Assembly (NCBI RefSeq): GCF_050320075.1
Contig: NZ_CP190018.1
Reading direction: 5' to 3' (one strand)
Origin: Escherichia coli
Lineage (GTDB): Bacteria; Pseudomonadota; Gammaproteobacteria; Enterobacterales; Enterobacteriaceae
DNA: 64,000 nt
Part shown: piece after piece, positions 2,098-58,348 of the stretch
Position numbering within the stretch: the stretch's first letter is position 1
How the letters are laid out: each line of letters starts with the position of its first letter
Made by a program: the position numbers and the translations under genes
Notes under the pieces: model-generated
What the model saw: only the letters and a program-made list of their open reading frames with translations
Databases searched by the model: none
Told to the model about the DNA's origin: nothing

Positions 2098-3399
2098 ATG
2101 AGTCAGGGTATCAATAACGATATGACTGCCAGTAAACCGCGCCATATCGTCAAAAATCTGCGTTGGTGGATACTGGTCCTTTTTTTGCTCGGTGTTACTG
2201 TCAACTACATCACGCGTAACTCGCTGGGTATTCTCGCCCCCGAACTGAAAAGCAACCTGGGGATTACCACCGAACAATATTCCTGGATTGTAGGTGCTTT
2301 CCAGCTCGCCTATACCCTATTCCAACCGTTGTGTGGATGGCTGATTGACGTCATTGGCCTCAAACTGGGCTTTATGATCTGCGCGGGACTGTGGGCGCTG
2401 GCCTGTCTGATGCATGCGGGGGCGGGAAACTGGGTACATCTGGCGCTGTTGCGCTTCTTTATGGGCGGTGCGGAAGCCGCGGCAACCCCAGCAAACGCCA
2501 AAACCATCGGTGAATGGTTTCCAAAATCAGAACGCCCGATCGCCGCAGGCTGGGCAGGCGTCGGTTTTTCCATCGGTGCCATGCTGGCCCCACCGATTAT
2601 CTATTTTGCCCACGCTTCATTCGGCTGGCAGGGTGCATTTATGTTCACTGGCATCCTGGCGATGCTGTGGGTGGTGCTGTGGTGGGCGTTCTATCACAAC
2701 CCGGATAAGCATCCGAACCTCAGCAAAGCCGAGCTGGACTTTATCCGCCAGGATAACGAAGCGCCCCCGATTAAATTACCCTTTCTGACCGCACTGAAAA
2801 CCGTGGGCAAAAATAAACGCTTTTACGGTATCGCTATCCCGGCCTTTATGGCAGAACCGGCGTGGGCGGTGATGAGTTTCTGGGTGCCGCTATACCTGTC
2901 CAAAACCTATGGCATGGACCTGAAGCAGATCGCATTATTCGCCTGGTTGCCGTTCCTCGCCGCTGATCTTGGCAGTATTGCCAGCGGCTATCTGACCAAA
3001 CTTTACACCCGCCTGTTTGGGCTGAGTCGTGTGAACTCCGTTGTCGCATCATCGGTCAGTGGCGCATTCTTGATGGTTTCGCTGGCGGTGATGGCCTTTA
3101 CCAATAACCCGTATATCGCCATCGTCCTTATTTCCATCGGCGGCTTCGGTCACCAGATCATCTCCTGCATGCTGAGCGCACTGGTGGTGGAATCCTTCGA
3201 CAAAGGTCAGATGGCCACTGTTAACGGCATGCGCGGTTCTGCCGCGTGGATCGCAAGTTTCCTGTTCTCCCTGATTATCGGGGTTACCGCTGACAAAATC
3301 GGCTTTAACCCCCTGTTTATCGCCATGGGCTTCTTTGACCTGATTGGCGCTTTCTTCCTGGTCACCTTTATTGCTGAACGTCGCGCAAAACGCGCCTGA
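2098..3399 (+). CDS. MFS transporter, anion:cation symporter (ExuT/GudP-like) family
   Basis: ORF track 2092-3399; multiple TM segments and ExuT-like sequence pattern; ATG at 2098 preceded by GGAG (ORF track starts 2 codons earlier at GTG). Confidence 0.75.
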   Translation: MSQGINNDMTASKPRHIVKNLRWWILVLFLLGVTVNYITRNSLGILAPELKSNLGITTEQYSWIVGAFQLAYTLFQPLCGWLIDVIGLKLGFMICAGLWALACLMHAGAGNWVHLALLRFFMGGAEAAATPANAKTIGEWFPKSERPIAAGWAGVGFSIGAMLAPPIIYFAHASFGWQGAFMFTGILAMLWVVLWWAFYHNPDKHPNLSKAELDFIRQDNEAPPIKLPFLTALKTVGKNKRFYGIAIPAFMAEPAWAVMSFWVPLYLSKTYGMDLKQIALFAWLPFLAADLGSIASGYLTKLYTRLFGLSRVNSVVASSVSGAFLMVSLAVMAFTNNPYIAIVLISIGGFGHQIISCMLSALVVESFDKGQMATVNGMRGSAAWIASFLFSLIIGVTADKIGFNPLFIAMGFFDLIGAFFLVTFIAERRAKRA

Positions 3400-3413: not shown

Positions 3414-5777
3414 ATGAAAACGCTGAAAAACTGGACCCTGCACAAACAGTCTGCCCACCACGTTGAACTGCTGGTCGATGGCCAGCATATCCTGTGCCTG
3501 TACGTGCTGGAAGAAAATCTGTTCCGCGTGCTGTTAAAACGCAAAGGCGAGCTGGCGCTGGATCGCACCTGGAGCATTGCTCCGGCGCAGGATGTGCCAT
3601 GGGAAGGGCGCAGCCGCGAAGATCTCAGCGGCTTTAGCCTGCCCGCGTGGACATTGATCCAGCACGACGACACCGTGGTTATCGCCACCGAGTCACTGCG
3701 TGCCACCGTTCACCAGCCGCTGTGGCTGGAGTGGCACTATCGTAACAACGAAGGCGAATGGCTGCCGTTGGTGAATGACCGCCCGACCAGCGCTTATCTG
3801 CTGAATGCCCACGGCGATGGCGTGGCACACTATCAGAGCCGTCGTAAAGATGAACGCTTTTATGGCCTCGGAGATAAAGCCGGCGACCTGCAACGCAACG
3901 GTAAACGTTACGAGATGCGTAACCTCGACGCGATGGGCTACAACGCCGTTAGTACTGACCCGCTGTACAAACACATTCCATTCACCATCACCCGCCGCGA
4001 TGACATTAGCTTCGGCCTGTTTTATGACAACCTCAGCAGCTGCTGGCTGGATCTGGGCAACGAGATCGACAACTACCACACCGCCTATCGCCGCTGGCAG
4101 GCGGAAGCGGGTGATATCGACTACTACCTGTTTACCGGCGAACGCGTACTTGATATCACCAAAGCCTTCGTACGCCTGACCGGCAAAACCCTGTTCGGAC
4201 CGAAATGGAGCCTGGGCTACAGCGGTTCAACTATGCACTACACCGATGCGCCGGACGCACAAAATCAGTTGATGAACTTTATCCGCCTGTGTGAAGAACA
4301 TGCGATTCCCTGCGATTCGTTCCAGCTCTCTTCCGGTTATACCTCAATTAACGGCAAGCGCTATGTGTTCAACTGGAATTACGACAAAGTGCCGCAGCCG
4401 AAAGTGATGAGCCAGGCATTTCACAATGCTGGTTTGCACCTGGCCGCCAATATCAAGCCGTGCCTGTTGCAGGATCACCCACGCTATAACGAAGTGGCAG
4501 AAAGAGGACTGTTCATCCGTGATTCAGAAACAGATGAACCAGAACGTTCCAGCTTCTGGGATGACGAAGGTTCTAACCTCGACTTTACTAATCCGCAGAC
4601 CATCCAGTGGTGGCAGGAAGGCGTGACCACACAGCTTCTGGAGATGGGTATCGACTCCACCTGGAACGACAACAACGAATTCGAAGTATGGGACGGTGAA
4701 GCACGCTGTCACGGCTTTGGTCAGACGATCGCGATCAAACATATTCGCCCGGTGATGCCACTGCTGATGATGCGAGCCTCGATGGAAGCCCAGCAACGTT
4801 TCGCTCCGGAAAAACGTCCGTACTTGATCTCCCGCTCCGGCTGCGCGGGAATGCAGCGCTATGTGCAGACCTGGAGCGGCGATAACCGCACTAGCTGGGA
4901 CACTCTGCGCTACAACACCCGCATGGGTCTGGGGATGAGCCTCTCCGGGCTGTATAACCTCGGTCACGACGTCGGCGGTTTCTCCGGTGATAAGCCGGAC
5001 CCGGAACTGTTTGTACGCTGGGTACAAAACGGCGTGATGCATCCGCGCTTTACGATTCACTCGTGGAACGATGACCATACCGTAAACGAACCGTGGATGT
5101 ATCCGGGCGTCACTCCGGCGATCCGCAGCGCTATTGAGTTGCGCTATCGCCTGCTGCCCTACTTTTATACCCTGATGTGGCAGGCATACGCCGATGATGA
5201 ACCAATGCTGCGTCCGACTTTCCTTGACCACGAGCACGACGTTCAGACTTTTGAAGAGTGTGATGACTTCCTGCTTGGTCGCGATATTTTGGTTGCCAGC
5301 GTCGTAGAGCAAGGCGAGCGCCAGCGCCGTGTATGGCTGCCAGATAACGAAACTGGCTGGTACGATTTCTACAACGGCGAATGGTTCAGTGGCGGTCAGT
5401 GGATCACCCTCGACGCACCGCTGGAGAAACTGCCGCTGATGGTGCGTGCCGGGGCTGGTCTACCGCTCAGCAAACGCATCACCTATGTGAGCGCAGAACA
5501 AGACGATACCCGCGAACTGAAACTGTTCCCGCTGAAAGGTGTGGGCACAACGTCCGGCCTGCTGTTTGAAGACGATGGCGAAAGCTGGGGCTACCAAACT
5601 GGTAATGCGCTTTGGGTGGAATGGGAAATGGTTTGCGATGGGGCGACCATCAACCTGAAAGTCAACGCGCGCGGGGATTATCGACCTGCATGGAGTGCAC
5701 TGAAAGTGTCATTACCAGTGGAAGAAAAACGCACGCTGCTGGTCAATGGTGTTGAAGGGAGTGAATGGATGCGTTAA
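3414..5777 (+). CDS. Glycoside hydrolase family 31 (alpha-glucosidase / alpha-xylosidase-like)
   Basis: ORF track 3402-5777; GH31 nucleophile-region motif MGIDSTWNDNNEF; ATG at 3414 (GTG at 3402 possible); starts 15 bp after MFS stop. Confidence 0.8.
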   Translation: MKTLKNWTLHKQSAHHVELLVDGQHILCLYVLEENLFRVLLKRKGELALDRTWSIAPAQDVPWEGRSREDLSGFSLPAWTLIQHDDTVVIATESLRATVHQPLWLEWHYRNNEGEWLPLVNDRPTSAYLLNAHGDGVAHYQSRRKDERFYGLGDKAGDLQRNGKRYEMRNLDAMGYNAVSTDPLYKHIPFTITRRDDISFGLFYDNLSSCWLDLGNEIDNYHTAYRRWQAEAGDIDYYLFTGERVLDITKAFVRLTGKTLFGPKWSLGYSGSTMHYTDAPDAQNQLMNFIRLCEEHAIPCDSFQLSSGYTSINGKRYVFNWNYDKVPQPKVMSQAFHNAGLHLAANIKPCLLQDHPRYNEVAERGLFIRDSETDEPERSSFWDDEGSNLDFTNPQTIQWWQEGVTTQLLEMGIDSTWNDNNEFEVWDGEARCHGFGQTIAIKHIRPVMPLLMMRASMEAQQRFAPEKRPYLISRSGCAGMQRYVQTWSGDNRTSWDTLRYNTRMGLGMSLSGLYNLGHDVGGFSGDKPDPELFVRWVQNGVMHPRFTIHSWNDDHTVNEPWMYPGVTPAIRSAIELRYRLLPYFYTLMWQAYADDEPMLRPTFLDHEHDVQTFEECDDFLLGRDILVASVVEQGERQRRVWLPDNETGWYDFYNGEWFSGGQWITLDAPLEKLPLMVRAGAGLPLSKRITYVSAEQDDTRELKLFPLKGVGTTSGLLFEDDGESWGYQTGNALWVEWEMVCDGATINLKVNARGDYRPAWSALKVSLPVEEKRTLLVNGVEGSEWMR

Positions 5778-45138: not shown

Positions 45139-46128
45139 TTAGCCGCCAATGTACGATAAGTTTTGCGTAATACCGGTGTTGTTTTGATGCAGGAAATGGG
45201 TCTGTTTCTTCTCCCGCAGCGCCGCTGAAATACGCGCTTCCAGCGCCTGTTGCTGGGTATCGTCTTCCAGCAGATCGCGCAGGTTAACGCCGCCTTCACC
45301 AAACAGGCAGAGATGGAGTTTACCAATGGAGGAAACGCGCAGGCGGTTGCAAGTGGCGCAGAAGTCTTTTTCATACGGCATGATAAGGCCAATCTCTCCG
45401 GCGTAATCCGGATGACAAAAGACTTGCGCGGGACCGTCGCTGCGTTGACGTAATTGGTGGATCCAGCCGCGACGCAGTAGCTCGTCACGCAGAACCTGAC
45501 CAGAGATGTGATGCTTACGGAAGAGCTCGCTGCCCTCACCCGTTTCCATCAATTCGATGAAACGCAGCTGGATAGGGCGATGCTGGATCCAGTTCAGAAA
45601 GGTGTCGAGCTGATGATGATTAACATCACGCATCAGCACGGTATTGACTTTGACCTTTTCAAAACCGGCCTCAAATGCGGCATCGATCCCTGCCATGACC
45701 TGGTTGAATTTATCCTGCCCGGTAATGGCATGAAACTGGTGAGCGTCAAGGCTATCAACGCTGACGTTGATGCCAGTAAGTCCAGCATCGCGCCAGTTCG
45801 CCACATCGCGTTCCAGACGGTAACCATTGGTGGTGACCGCAATCTGGCGGATAGCGTCGTTTTCCCGCACAGCGGCGATGATATCGGTAAAGTCGCGGCG
45901 TAAAGACGGCTCACCACCTGTCAGACGGACTTTTTCGGTGCCAAGACTGGCGAAGGCGCGCGTAACCCGGCGAATTTCATCGACGGTAAGAAAGCCTTTA
46001 TTGGTGACGCCGCTCGGTTTGTAGCCATCCGGCAGGCAGTAGGTGCAACGAAAGTTACACACATCGGTAATCGACAGGCGCAAGTAGTAAAACTTACGCG
46101 CAAATGCATCAGTCAGTTGTGAAGCCAT
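45139..46128 (-). CDS. moaA: GTP 3',8-cyclase MoaA (radical SAM)
   Basis: 329 aa from ATG 46128; CNFRCTYC radical-SAM cluster motif. Confidence 0.95.
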
Positions 46129-46134
46129 GTACAC

Positions 46135-46290
46135 CTTTCCAGATACGGGAGGCGAAGTCATTTCTTCCTTCGCCCTGGTGGCAATCTTTACGAGCATTGT
46201 CACGGCCAAAGCACCGTATCAGTTGACCCAGGTGCAGAGGCTAGAGTGTTTAGTGGTTAAGCCGATACTAGCGTGTAAATGAGATTTTTA
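46135..46290 (-). ncRNA. moaA leader, expected molybdenum-cofactor (Moco) riboswitch
   Basis: Placed by established knowledge that the E. coli moaABCDE leader carries the Moco RNA motif; conserved motif not verified by alignment here. Confidence 0.45.
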
Positions 46291-55789: not shown

Positions 55790-55804
55790 GTTAGTATAAA
55801 AAAG
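55790..55804. other. Lambda-type att core (attR junction): ttagtataaaaaagc
   Basis: Reverse complement of the 15-bp lambda core GCTTTTTTATACTAA, flanked on the ybhB side by bacterial-arm sequence cgctcaag. Confidence 0.85.
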
Positions 55805-55947
55805 CTGAACGAGAAACGTAAAATGATATAAATATCAATATATTAAATTAGATTTTGCATAAAAAACAGACTACATAATACTGTAAAACACAACATATGC
55901 AGTCACTATGAATCAACTACTTAGATGGTATTAGTGACCTGTAACAG
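55805..55947. promoter_or_regulatory. Lambda attP P-arm (Int arm-type, IHF, Xis, Fis site region)
   Basis: ~140 bp matching, as far as I can recall it, the reverse complement of the lambda P arm (...cgtaaaatgatataaatatcaatatattaaattagattttgcataaaaaacagactacataatactgtaaaacac...ctgtaacaga). Confidence 0.75.
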
Positions 55948-55950
55948 AGC

Positions 55951-55990
55951 ATTAGCGCAAGGTGATTTTTGTCTTCTTGCGCTAATTTTT
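55951..55990 (+). terminator. sib / tI-like intrinsic terminator distal to att
   Basis: ttagcgcaag ... cttgcgctaa hairpin followed by tttttt on + strand, in the position of lambda sib/tI. Confidence 0.6.
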
Positions 55991-56510
55991 TGTCATCAAA
56001 CCTGTCGCACTCCAGAGAAGCACAAAGCCTCGCAATCCAGTGCAAAGCTTTGTGTGCCACCCACTACGGCCCGCATAACCAGTAAGAAGATAGCAGTGAT
56101 GTCAAACGACGCAGCAGTCTTCTTTTCTTTCACACTTTCCCCCACCCAGCATACATACCTTTCTGCCACAGCTGAAATGAATGTCTATTATGAGCAAGGA
56201 GAGGAAATTCGTAATTGTCATCATCAATGGCGATTTGCTGGTACTATCTGTGTTAAGTAATAGGAAAACAAGTAACTGGAGAAAGATTTGATTTACACAC
56301 TATTATAGCAGTTAATAGTTTAAGCTATTGACACTTTAACTATTTTGCATAAAGTTAAACATAACAACCCCATAAATTGATAATGCAAGAGAGTACTGAA
56401 CTAAGTATTTTAGCTCTACCATATTGCCCAGGCAGTATAATATATGATACATTAAAAAATTAGATTTAATTTACTTAAACATCCTAATCACACTAAGAAT
56501 GAAGAAATAA

Positions 56511-57389
56511 ATGCTGTTTAAATATTGTCCTATTAATGAGTATTCAATTAAATCTCTAGTGGAAAACAAACTATATCTTAATCATCTCAACATGATGAAT
56601 GACAGTGCTGAAGGTTTTTGTAAGATAATAAGTGGTTTCCCAGATTATAATGAAAAAACTGAGAGATATGATTTGATAATAAAAACATGGTGTGGAGAGT
56701 CTGGCTGGCTACCTTCTGAATATGAATATAACGAATATATTGATTCAATGAGAGAACTGGAACCAAATGTCCCGCAATTGCTGGACTCTGCAAGGATATC
56801 ATGCTTTACGAATACGGCGTTAAACCCTACAATGTGGGCTCATTATGCTAACAACAGAACAGGTATATGTATAGAATTCGATCAAGACAAAATAAGAGAA
56901 CTAGAGGATATCTATATCTTTGACGTCAAATATAAAGATCGCCCTCCGACTATTGATACTGCAGTACTAACATTAATAGCTGATCAGGTGAACTATAATC
57001 ATGATGCAATTTATGATGATTATCAAGAAAAGTTCAAACATCTTTATGAACAAGCATTTGACGAGGGAAGAAATTTGCTTTTGGAAATTTACAATGGAAT
57101 ATTGGCAACTAAATCTCAAGAATGGTCTTATGAACAAGAAAAACGGCTAATATATATTTTATCCTTCTCACAAGAAGACAAATTGGCAAAAAAATATAAA
57201 ACTGGCATAAACATATCACTCCCTGAAGGATGCATTAAAAGTGTTATCCTAGGTGAGAAGACAAGTGAGCATGATAAAAAACTTATAGTTTCAGCTATAA
57301 AAAAACATTCTAAACACATTAAGTTGAAGAGAGCTACAATAACACAAGGCGAATATTTATTATCTATTCGTGATGAAGTTTTTAGCTGA
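56511..57389 (+). CDS. DUF2971-like protein of unknown function (prophage cargo)
   Basis: 292 aa; N-terminal MLFKY...L.ENKLYL...NDSAEG and central SCFTNTALNPTMWAHYANNRTGICIEF match what I recall as DUF2971 hallmarks; visibly AT-rich by eye. Confidence 0.6.
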   Translation: MLFKYCPINEYSIKSLVENKLYLNHLNMMNDSAEGFCKIISGFPDYNEKTERYDLIIKTWCGESGWLPSEYEYNEYIDSMRELEPNVPQLLDSARISCFTNTALNPTMWAHYANNRTGICIEFDQDKIRELEDIYIFDVKYKDRPPTIDTAVLTLIADQVNYNHDAIYDDYQEKFKHLYEQAFDEGRNLLLEIYNGILATKSQEWSYEQEKRLIYILSFSQEDKLAKKYKTGINISLPEGCIKSVILGEKTSEHDKKLIVSAIKKHSKHIKLKRATITQGEYLLSIRDEVFS

Positions 57390-57451
57390 TGGTATTATAA
57401 TCGAACAGATATTTTCTCCTAAGCGTTGCATTTATCCCACGGTAACATATT

Positions 57452-57490
57452 CATACTCAAATATCCTGCGACATGGAAGATTTGAGTATG
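57452..57490 (+). terminator. Hairpin (11-bp stem, 17-nt loop) downstream of the DUF2971-like ORF
   Basis: catactcaaat ... atttgagtatg inverted repeat 63 bp after stop; weak T tract follows. Confidence 0.4.
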
Positions 57491-57678
57491 GTTGTTCTTC
57501 ATGAGCGAAAAGCAGATGTTCGCGCTAAGGTATAATCAATTGGTTGTTAAATAGTTTAAACACAAGCAATGACTAATAAAACAATGCCACAAACCTTATT
57601 ATTTCTAAACTAGCATTTAGCTTTCAGACAATTTATTGATTGTTAATACATATTTTTAATATTTAATTATCATTTATT

Positions 57679-57689
57679 CCCCCCCCCCC
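57679..57689. repeat. Homopolymeric C11 tract
   Basis: 11 consecutive C at 57679-57689; a second C6 run at 57776-57781. Confidence 0.9.
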
Positions 57690-57882
57690 TCATGCTTATC
57701 AAATACTTCACAACAACGGAATTTTAATCCACATTTGTTATCTGTCTCTATCAGATTCATCCATACCCCCCTCCATTATTATTTAATTTCCAGATAAAAA
57801 TCTTCATCCTGTTATACATATAAAAAAGTGCAATATTTAAATAATGATAACAAATTATTGATTTTGCTCACATAAATTTTAT

Positions 57883-57911
57883 TGACAAGATGATAAGCTG
57901 ATATCTACACA
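57883..57911 (+). promoter_or_regulatory. Candidate sigma70 promoter for the zinc-ribbon ORF
   Basis: TTGACA at 57883-57888, 17-bp spacer, weak -10 tacaca; SD aagagg 5 nt before ATG 57935. Confidence 0.4.
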
Positions 57912-57934
57912 TTGTATTTTCTCAAGAGGAATTT

Positions 57935-58348
57935 ATGGCTGACATTGTCACTGGTTTGACCGCACTCAAAACCGCCTTTGATTTAGCAAAAGATATAAAA
58001 AATGCCACTGGCGCATACAATGATGCAGAAATGAGGCTTAAGTTTAGTGAGCTTTATAGCGCGCTATCTGAAGCCAAAATAGAACTGGCTGATACACAGC
58101 TAGAAATGTATGAACTAAAGCTGAAGATCGAAGAGTTGCAAGCTAAGCTTGATGCATCGGACGAGCTTGAATATAGGGAAAACGTATACTGGAGGGCCTC
58201 ACCTATCAATGGCAAACCAAACGGTCCTTTTTGCCCAAGATGTTATGAAAGTTCAGAGAAGAAGCTATCTTCAATGAGTCAAGTAACGGGGCATGCAACT
58301 ATTGCTGGAAAATACAAATGTAATACTTGTAACGCCTACGTTAGATAA
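57935..58348 (+). CDS. Small coiled-coil protein with C-terminal CxxC...CxxC zinc ribbon (prophage cargo)
   Basis: 137 aa; heptad-like LKFSELYSALSEAKIELADTQLEMYELKLKIEELQAKL; CPRCY ... CNTCNAY; good SD. Confidence 0.6.
   Translation: MADIVTGLTALKTAFDLAKDIKNATGAYNDAEMRLKFSELYSALSEAKIELADTQLEMYELKLKIEELQAKLDASDELEYRENVYWRASPINGKPNGPFCPRCYESSEKKLSSMSQVTGHATIAGKYKCNTCNAYVR

Follow-up and report, generated by a model that had tools for sequence, protein, structure and literature searches.

A C-tract of variable length in the mosaic spacer between two cargo genes of an Escherichia coli lambdoid prophage is probably a neutral, slippage-prone microsatellite

In a lambdoid prophage of Escherichia coli, two cargo genes are separated by a spacer that holds an uninterrupted run of 11 cytosines. 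A first-pass annotation had considered this run prone to slipped-strand mispairing and had proposed that changes in its length alter promoter or leader function of the downstream gene in a phase-variable way. Does the tract act as such a switch, does its composition matter in some other way, or does its length vary without consequence for the genes on either side? The stretch of DNA analysed here (64 kb, hereafter the window) is E. coli chromosome with the prophage at the lambda attachment site, in the order bioA, ybhB, lambda att core and lambdoid prophage. The features that frame the question are:

55791-55805, minus strand: lambda att core (GCTTTTTTATACTAA), the prophage end next to ybhB-bioA
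56511-57389, plus strand: DUF2971 cargo gene (292 aa, WP_001550858.1), a match to the PADLOC candidate defence family PDC-S31
57679-57689, plus strand (G11 on the minus strand): C11 homopolymer, a hypermutable tract as read from the sequence
57766-57771, plus strand: C6 run, giving the Shine-Dalgarno-like motif GGAGGGGGG on the minus strand
57935-58348, plus strand: coiled-coil/Zn-ribbon cargo gene (137 aa, WP_001550856.1), phrog_1244, with no function assigned

Both cargo genes occupy the position of the lambda b region because they lie between the att core and the tail-fibre genes, which, together with a lom-like gene and the tail-tip gene, are encoded on the minus strand. Of 5,426 complete E. 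coli genomes, 45 carried the full arrangement, on the chromosome in every case, and one of these 45 records is labelled ST38. With the Zn-ribbon protein appearing in 4,834 blocks of a public assembly collection, the locus is common. The DUF2971 and Zn-ribbon genes are also found apart in other genomes and are thus not an obligate pair in need of a shared control region. One of the 45 genomes (NZ_AP024112.1, strain ECSC054) carries an IS5 element between the att site and the DUF2971 gene (equivalent of 55806-57430).

The C11 run sits exactly where the first-pass annotation had placed it (...TCATTTATT-C11-TCATGCTTATC...), beginning 290 nt after the last base of the DUF2971 stop codon at 57389. 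From its end to the ATG of the Zn-ribbon ORF at 57935 we measured 246 nt, in agreement with the approximately 250 bp given before, and the 545-bp spacer is AT-rich as described, with a GC content of 0.27-0.38 by segment as compared to 0.515 for the whole window. The annotation also mentioned a second run of six C's. This run exists, but its coordinates had been given as 57776-57781, ten too high. It is constant in clean assemblies, departs from six in three poor assemblies only, and is aligned to TTTTTC in relatives of the Zn-ribbon locus; rare C7 variants of it were deduced from the fused peptides P0024 and P0026.

Runs of G or C as long as the tract are exceptional in this sequence. Apart from C11, the window contains 30 such runs of length 5, four of length 6 and one of length 7, which leaves the tract as the sole G/C homopolymer longer than 7 in 64 kb. 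Three overlapping C9/G9 matches, equivalent to a run of 11, arose in 2 of 100 dinucleotide-preserving shuffles of the window, a test that is blind to the low GC content around the tract; because local GC is just 0.29, the run is rarer still than the shuffles indicate. In approximately 318 kb of other loci, all G/C runs of at least 9 were copies of the same tract. The C11 run thus exceeds chance expectation.

Comparing tract length across related strains, as the first-pass annotation had recommended, returned assembly consensus lengths from C9 to C14. A 251-bp query was matched over 251 bases in two of the 45 complete genomes, over 250 in 39 and over 249 in four, all otherwise identical, corresponding to C11, C10 and C9, respectively; these lengths are assembly consensus rather than read pile-ups, and errors of sequencing or polishing could underlie part of the C9 and C11 calls. 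Across these genomes the tract was the single variable site of the spacer. Direct reading of individual copies gave C11 (L001, L009), C10 (L002) and C9 (L007, L008), with the same C6 run in all. Isolates assembled at these lengths include GTEN_23 for C11, strain 144 for C10 and S1-JOR-02-A for C9. A further 13 assemblies showed C10 (eight), C9 (two) or C4-C6 (three). With C10 as the population mode, the C11 of the window is a minority allele.

When 4.8 kb around the locus were aligned for 16 copies, the tract was again the sole multi-state site. Two copies, one with C10 (L023) and one with C9 (L030), have three SNPs in common that are missing from the other C9 loci (L007, L008 and L021), which argues for at least two independent origins, or mis-calls, of C9; the C9 state is homoplasious. 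In E. coli, the indel rate at mononucleotide runs climbs exponentially with run length (PMC11754648). The view of the tract as slippage-prone is borne out by the three lengths in 45 otherwise identical genomes, by lengths of up to C14 elsewhere and by the homoplasy of C9.

The lengths beyond C11 came from a peptide proxy, which makes use of a small reading frame that ends in the tract:

57674-57760, minus strand: 28-aa micro-ORF, the last codons of which pass through the G-tract

Each tract length gives this micro-ORF its own peptide, with a tail of E* at n = 11, NK* at n = 10 and INDN* at n = 9, and these peptides were looked up by exact match in public assemblies. Three length-dependent peptides that can be detected in this way, of 31, 29 and 32 aa, represented C9 (150 contigs), C10 (at least 1000) and C12 (13); C13 was seen on two contigs and C14 on one. 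Peptides for C11, C8 and C7 derive from ORFs of 84-87 nt; as Prodigal, a common gene caller, has a minimum ORF length of 90 nt, no conclusion can be drawn from their not being in the collection. A further peptide (P0025, ...GGGDK; 68 contigs) reports a T-to-C substitution directly 5′ of the run, at the equivalent of window position 57678, which turns C10 into C11 while spacer length stays unchanged. Such a boundary shift is of the type expected from transient misalignment at the edge of a run.

The micro-ORF itself is probably not a gene, judging from its sequence and that of its relatives, in which neither the frame nor the GGAGGGGGG ribosome-binding motif is conserved. In all three minus-strand frames, a stop follows within five codons past the run, leaving a tail of one to four residues, and on the plus strand no ORF of at least 20 aa crosses the tract. 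An intragenic, translational mode of phase variation does not fit this layout, in which the micro-ORF is crossed at its 3′ end only and the plus strand offers no frame. In many public assemblies the micro-ORF is called with 28-32 aa under spurious names, e.g., 'phosphate ABC transporter substrate-binding protein', and it is left unannotated by RefSeq PGAP. Rfam returned no match in the spacer, either at gathering thresholds across the whole window or at E-values of up to 1 for 57300-58000. Elsewhere in the window, a Moco (molybdenum cofactor) riboswitch lies at 46116-46260 on the minus strand (103 bits), an ordinary chromosomal feature that is unrelated to the tract.

Homology searches resolved the spacer into a patchwork of a DUF2971 module, a small recombinase stub, an orphan segment and a Zn-ribbon module. 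The DUF2971 module spans approximately 56310-57412, as homology to the DUF2971 loci of Enterobacter and Salmonella (81% DNA identity) begins at 56310 or 56454 and ends at 57412. It is followed by:

57431-57520, minus strand: recombinase gene stub, consisting of a ~65-nt leader and codons 1-8 (MNMLPWDK vs MNTSPWNK)
57521-57717, no strand assigned: orphan AT-rich segment (197 bp, GC 0.29) containing the C-run
57718-57934, plus strand: upstream module accompanying the Zn-ribbon gene (roughly 215 bp), as defined by alignment to nine relatives

At 80-84% identity, the stub corresponds to the leader and opening codons of a tyrosine recombinase of 200 aa (WP_001305361.1) that consists of the catalytic domain only; plasmids and roughly 870 E. 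coli genomes carry this recombinase gene. The Shine-Dalgarno sequence and ATG of the stub would both lie inside a hairpin at 57452-57490, and the same piece, without the gene, is found also in the gpFI-gpG hotspot of P2-like phages. We considered the tract as part of the promoter region of the small recombinase and rejected the idea, as no G/C run is present at that position in intact recombinase loci. Just to the right of the stub, a perfect TATAAT is present at 57531-57536 on the plus strand, lacking both a recognisable -35 element and a TG extension; transcription from it, if it is active, would pass across the orphan segment and the C-run in the direction of the Zn-ribbon gene.

The orphan segment has no homolog outside the 45 E. 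coli genomes in our searches of E. coli, phages, plasmids, viral contigs, DUF2971 relatives and one genome per species, and its metagenome matches were the same locus only. When E. coli genomes, phages and plasmids were searched by distant blastn, all that came back were AT-rich chance matches, and neither viral contigs nor a set with one genome per species contained the exact tract pattern (0 matches each). A 20-mer of the segment matched one Bacteroidaceae MAG, with similarity not extending beyond 30 nt. A weak direct repeat of 33 nt with 73% identity has one copy in the orphan segment (57628-57660; ACAATTTATTGATTG...) and the other just upstream of the Zn-ribbon gene (57850-57882; ACAAATTATTGATTT...), and could reflect either repeated protein-binding sites or chance similarity of AT-rich DNA.

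To the right of the orphan segment, homology to nine Zn-ribbon loci of other prophages (79-88% protein identity) starts ~30 bp beyond the tract. None of these nine loci has a C or G run upstream of the gene, and relatives of the DUF2971 locus lack the tract-bearing segment entirely; DUF2971 relatives in viral contigs, at 25-30% identity, are too distant to inform on the spacer. In the Zn-ribbon relatives, a tRNA-Leu 3′ fragment or icd lies immediately next to the upstream module, which is thus a former att-proximal arm of another prophage. In the viral contigs compared with 57718-58348 (L010-L018), the Zn-ribbon gene is always the outermost prophage gene, ~215 bp from the tRNA-Leu fragment or icd. 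The location of the window's copy deep inside a prophage at the lambda att site points to the capture of another prophage's end. We also tried the orphan segment as a decayed tRNA-Leu 3′ half with chromosomal flank, in which the C-run would have grown from a TTTTTCCC junction. Alignment scores stayed within the shuffle range (z ≤ 3.3), and the idea was dropped because it is only the C6 run, within the well-aligned module, that matches TTTTTC in the relatives.

This spacer resembles other moron or cargo junctions, such as lambdoid b regions and the Z/fun hotspots of P2, in that AT-rich foreign genes lie between tail-fibre genes and att and module boundaries vary from phage to phage. Unlike at those junctions, the spacer here keeps a recombinase stub with a hairpin leader, the same stub that is present in the P2-like hotspot. 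It is a record of how prophage cargo is built from mobile-element fragments, including a recombinase stub and a former att-proximal arm.

A switch at the level of transcription would call for a promoter or regulatory site of which the tract is a part. Consensus and relaxed-criteria scans at n = 7-14 found no sigma-70-like plus-strand promoter that includes the tract, and for the Zn-ribbon gene no promoter could be confidently identified by consensus or conservation. The sole candidate is on the minus strand, where ATGAGG (57693 to 57688) and GATAAT (57671 to 57666) flank the tract with a score of 8/12 (3/6 for the -35 element) and a spacing of 15 at n = 10, the mode, 16 at n = 11 and 17 at n = 12. 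Neisseria porA and opc carry poly-G and poly-C promoter tracts analogous to the C-stretch of Bordetella fim promoters. In Bordetella fim2, fim3 and fimX, this promoter C-stretch is, like the tract, a long intergenic C/G run whose length varies between isolates by slippage (PMC1891110), a variation that we see here in assembly consensus lengths. Unlike the fim type, the tract lies 246 nt upstream of the gene, neither in nor near a recognisable plus-strand promoter, and is not conserved with the gene that it would regulate, being absent from that gene's relatives. In a survey of Bordetella homopolymers, those 21-80 nt upstream of a start codon were regarded as likely regulators and those at more than 150 nt as unlikely ones (PMC1891110).

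How, then, is the length variation to be understood? One alternative is that there is none in nature: the tract would have one fixed length in all isolates, probably C10, and the differences would stem from sequencing or assembly error. Complete genomes are mostly derived from long reads, which mis-call homopolymers, and the non-modal lengths in the complete genomes are all ±1 base from the mode. In three poor long-read assemblies (L026-L028), the tract is indeed collapsed to C4-C6, along with a shortened C6 run and frameshifted genes, so that the first-pass warning of an assembly-error hotspot was well placed; at this tract, genome comparisons reliably produce false indels and false strain differences. 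Yet there are C9 and C11 assemblies without any other indel in 4.8 kb, C9 occurs also in a metagenome assembly (L021), and lengths of up to C14 together with a substitution variant on 68 contigs are hard to obtain from consensus error alone. In vivo slippage is moreover expected for runs so long (PMC11754648), and we regard a wholly artefactual origin as very unlikely. That tract length acts as a switch, setting the spacing of a promoter or regulatory site and thereby toggling either the Zn-ribbon gene on the plus strand or a minus-strand antisense RNA toward the DUF2971 3′ end, has an equally slim chance. The polymorphic, homoplasious length would suit such a switch, as would the ATGAGG and GATAAT elements on either side of the tract with their spacings of 15, 16 and 17, and the DUF2971 gene matches a candidate defence family of a kind that is phase-varied in other bacteria. 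The distance of 246 nt to the Zn-ribbon ATG exceeds the 150-nt limit (PMC1891110), however, a plus-strand promoter is absent at every tract length scanned, and the relatives of either gene are all without the tract. As for the minus strand, the candidate is weak, its spacing is poor at the modal C10, and its transcript would enter the dead recombinase stub before running antisense into the DUF2971 3′ end. The specific version in which the G-tract is the spacer of this promoter (ATGAGG-N15-17-GATAAT) and slippage yields a phase-variable antisense RNA against the DUF2971 gene is highly improbable. The phase-variable promoter or leader control of the downstream gene that had been proposed in the first-pass annotation is not supported, given the position of the tract outside the Zn-ribbon module, its distance from the gene, the missing plus-strand promoter and its absence from relatives. 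Were a switch nevertheless to operate, it would be a rare case of homopolymer phase variation of E. coli prophage cargo, in a globally common clinical lineage; homopolymer contingency loci are essentially undocumented in E. coli prophages, and this E. coli lineage, with one member assigned to ST38, would then possess a contingency locus as in Neisseria, Haemophilus and Bordetella.

It may also be the composition of the wider region that matters and not the exact number of C's. On the plus strand, ~57620-57840 is C-rich and G-poor (GC skew -0.57 to -0.70). A 78-nt window from 57676 contains 26 C and 5 G, a C-minus-G excess within the top 0.06% of windows on both strands, and RNA from the stretch is predicted to be unstructured (minimum free energy -7.3 kcal/mol for 161 nt, z = +0.26). 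A rut site, which likewise consists of at least ~80 nt of C-rich, G-poor, unstructured and untranslated RNA, would read the same way: the 160 nt would load Rho and end read-through from the DUF2971 gene before the Zn-ribbon gene, so that the C-rich stretch could insulate the latter. C-richness would then be of importance and a single-C change would not, which is compatible with the tract being a neutral microsatellite. Skew, C excess and lack of structure all speak for a rut site, as do the absence of a plus-strand ORF of at least 20 aa across the tract and of a predicted intrinsic terminator between the two cargo genes. The stretch is a candidate by its composition, however, and is not conserved: at the positions aligned to it, the Zn-ribbon relatives show no richness in C. 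Rho targets untranslated foreign RNA in general, and rut sites do not require a homopolymer. We consider a rut function unlikely.

The tract is instead probably a neutral, slippage-prone mononucleotide microsatellite that resides in an orphan piece of a mosaic junction, where a lambdoid prophage has its equivalent of the b region. Replication slippage would add or remove single C's, the run would occasionally grow by T-to-C substitution of a neighbouring T, and isolates would hence come to differ, with a mode of C10 and a range from C9 to C14. These length changes would most likely be neutral because, from where the run lies, its length could hardly control whether either cargo gene is transcribed or translated. 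We infer slippage from the run-length dependence of E. coli indels, neutrality from position only, and a lack of tract function from the finding of no dependent promoter, ORF or RNA family. Consistent with neutrality, variation is confined to repeat number and is recurrent, with C9 reached at least twice, and no element that depends on tract length was found. What counts against it is that runs of such length are uncommon in E. coli and yet this one persists at a mode of 10, that the weak minus-strand promoter candidate has the tract as its spacer, and that the C-rich, G-poor character of the surrounding 160 nt may mean that the composition is not accidental. For neutral mononucleotide microsatellites of E. 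coli, the indel rate is a steep function of run length (PMC11754648), and the tract behaves likewise as the sole multi-state, homoplasious site among the 16 aligned copies. With 9-14 bases it greatly exceeds the usual G/C runs of E. coli; the next longest in the window has 7. As a representative of a known kind the tract is ordinary, and it lends itself as a natural marker of slippage rate in this lineage.

The recombinase of which the spacer keeps a stub is part of a larger unit elsewhere. In two E. coli islands (L005 1878-2585, L006 1878-2586), a 709-bp unit is 93% conserved and the flanking genes differ. It consists of the catalytic-domain-only 200-aa tyrosine recombinase and its leader of roughly 65 nt, in which a 15-bp inverted repeat with an 8-nt centre encloses the Shine-Dalgarno sequence and ATG of the gene, an architecture like that of a tyrosine-recombinase core site. 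The window, P2-like phages and some plasmids have the leader and approximately the first 20 nt of the gene only, cut at nearly the same point (TTCCACGG); in L003 and L004, this stub is at 2999-3078. Judging from this sequence pattern, cargo junctions may be marked by the leader stub as a site of recombination. The 373-aa cargo proteins of L006 (by the recombinase) and L003 (by the stub) were considered as one gene in circular permutation and turned out to be unrelated. A 24-bp palindrome, GTCCGCTCCT(A/G)GCACA(G/A)AGCGGAC, of which the window has no copy, recurs beyond the variable cargo genes next to the recombinase or its stub. Its positions (4066-4100 and 854-877 in L005, 4432-4455 and 1880-1896 in L006, and 4401-4424 in L003 and L004) suggest that these palindromes are cassette boundaries.
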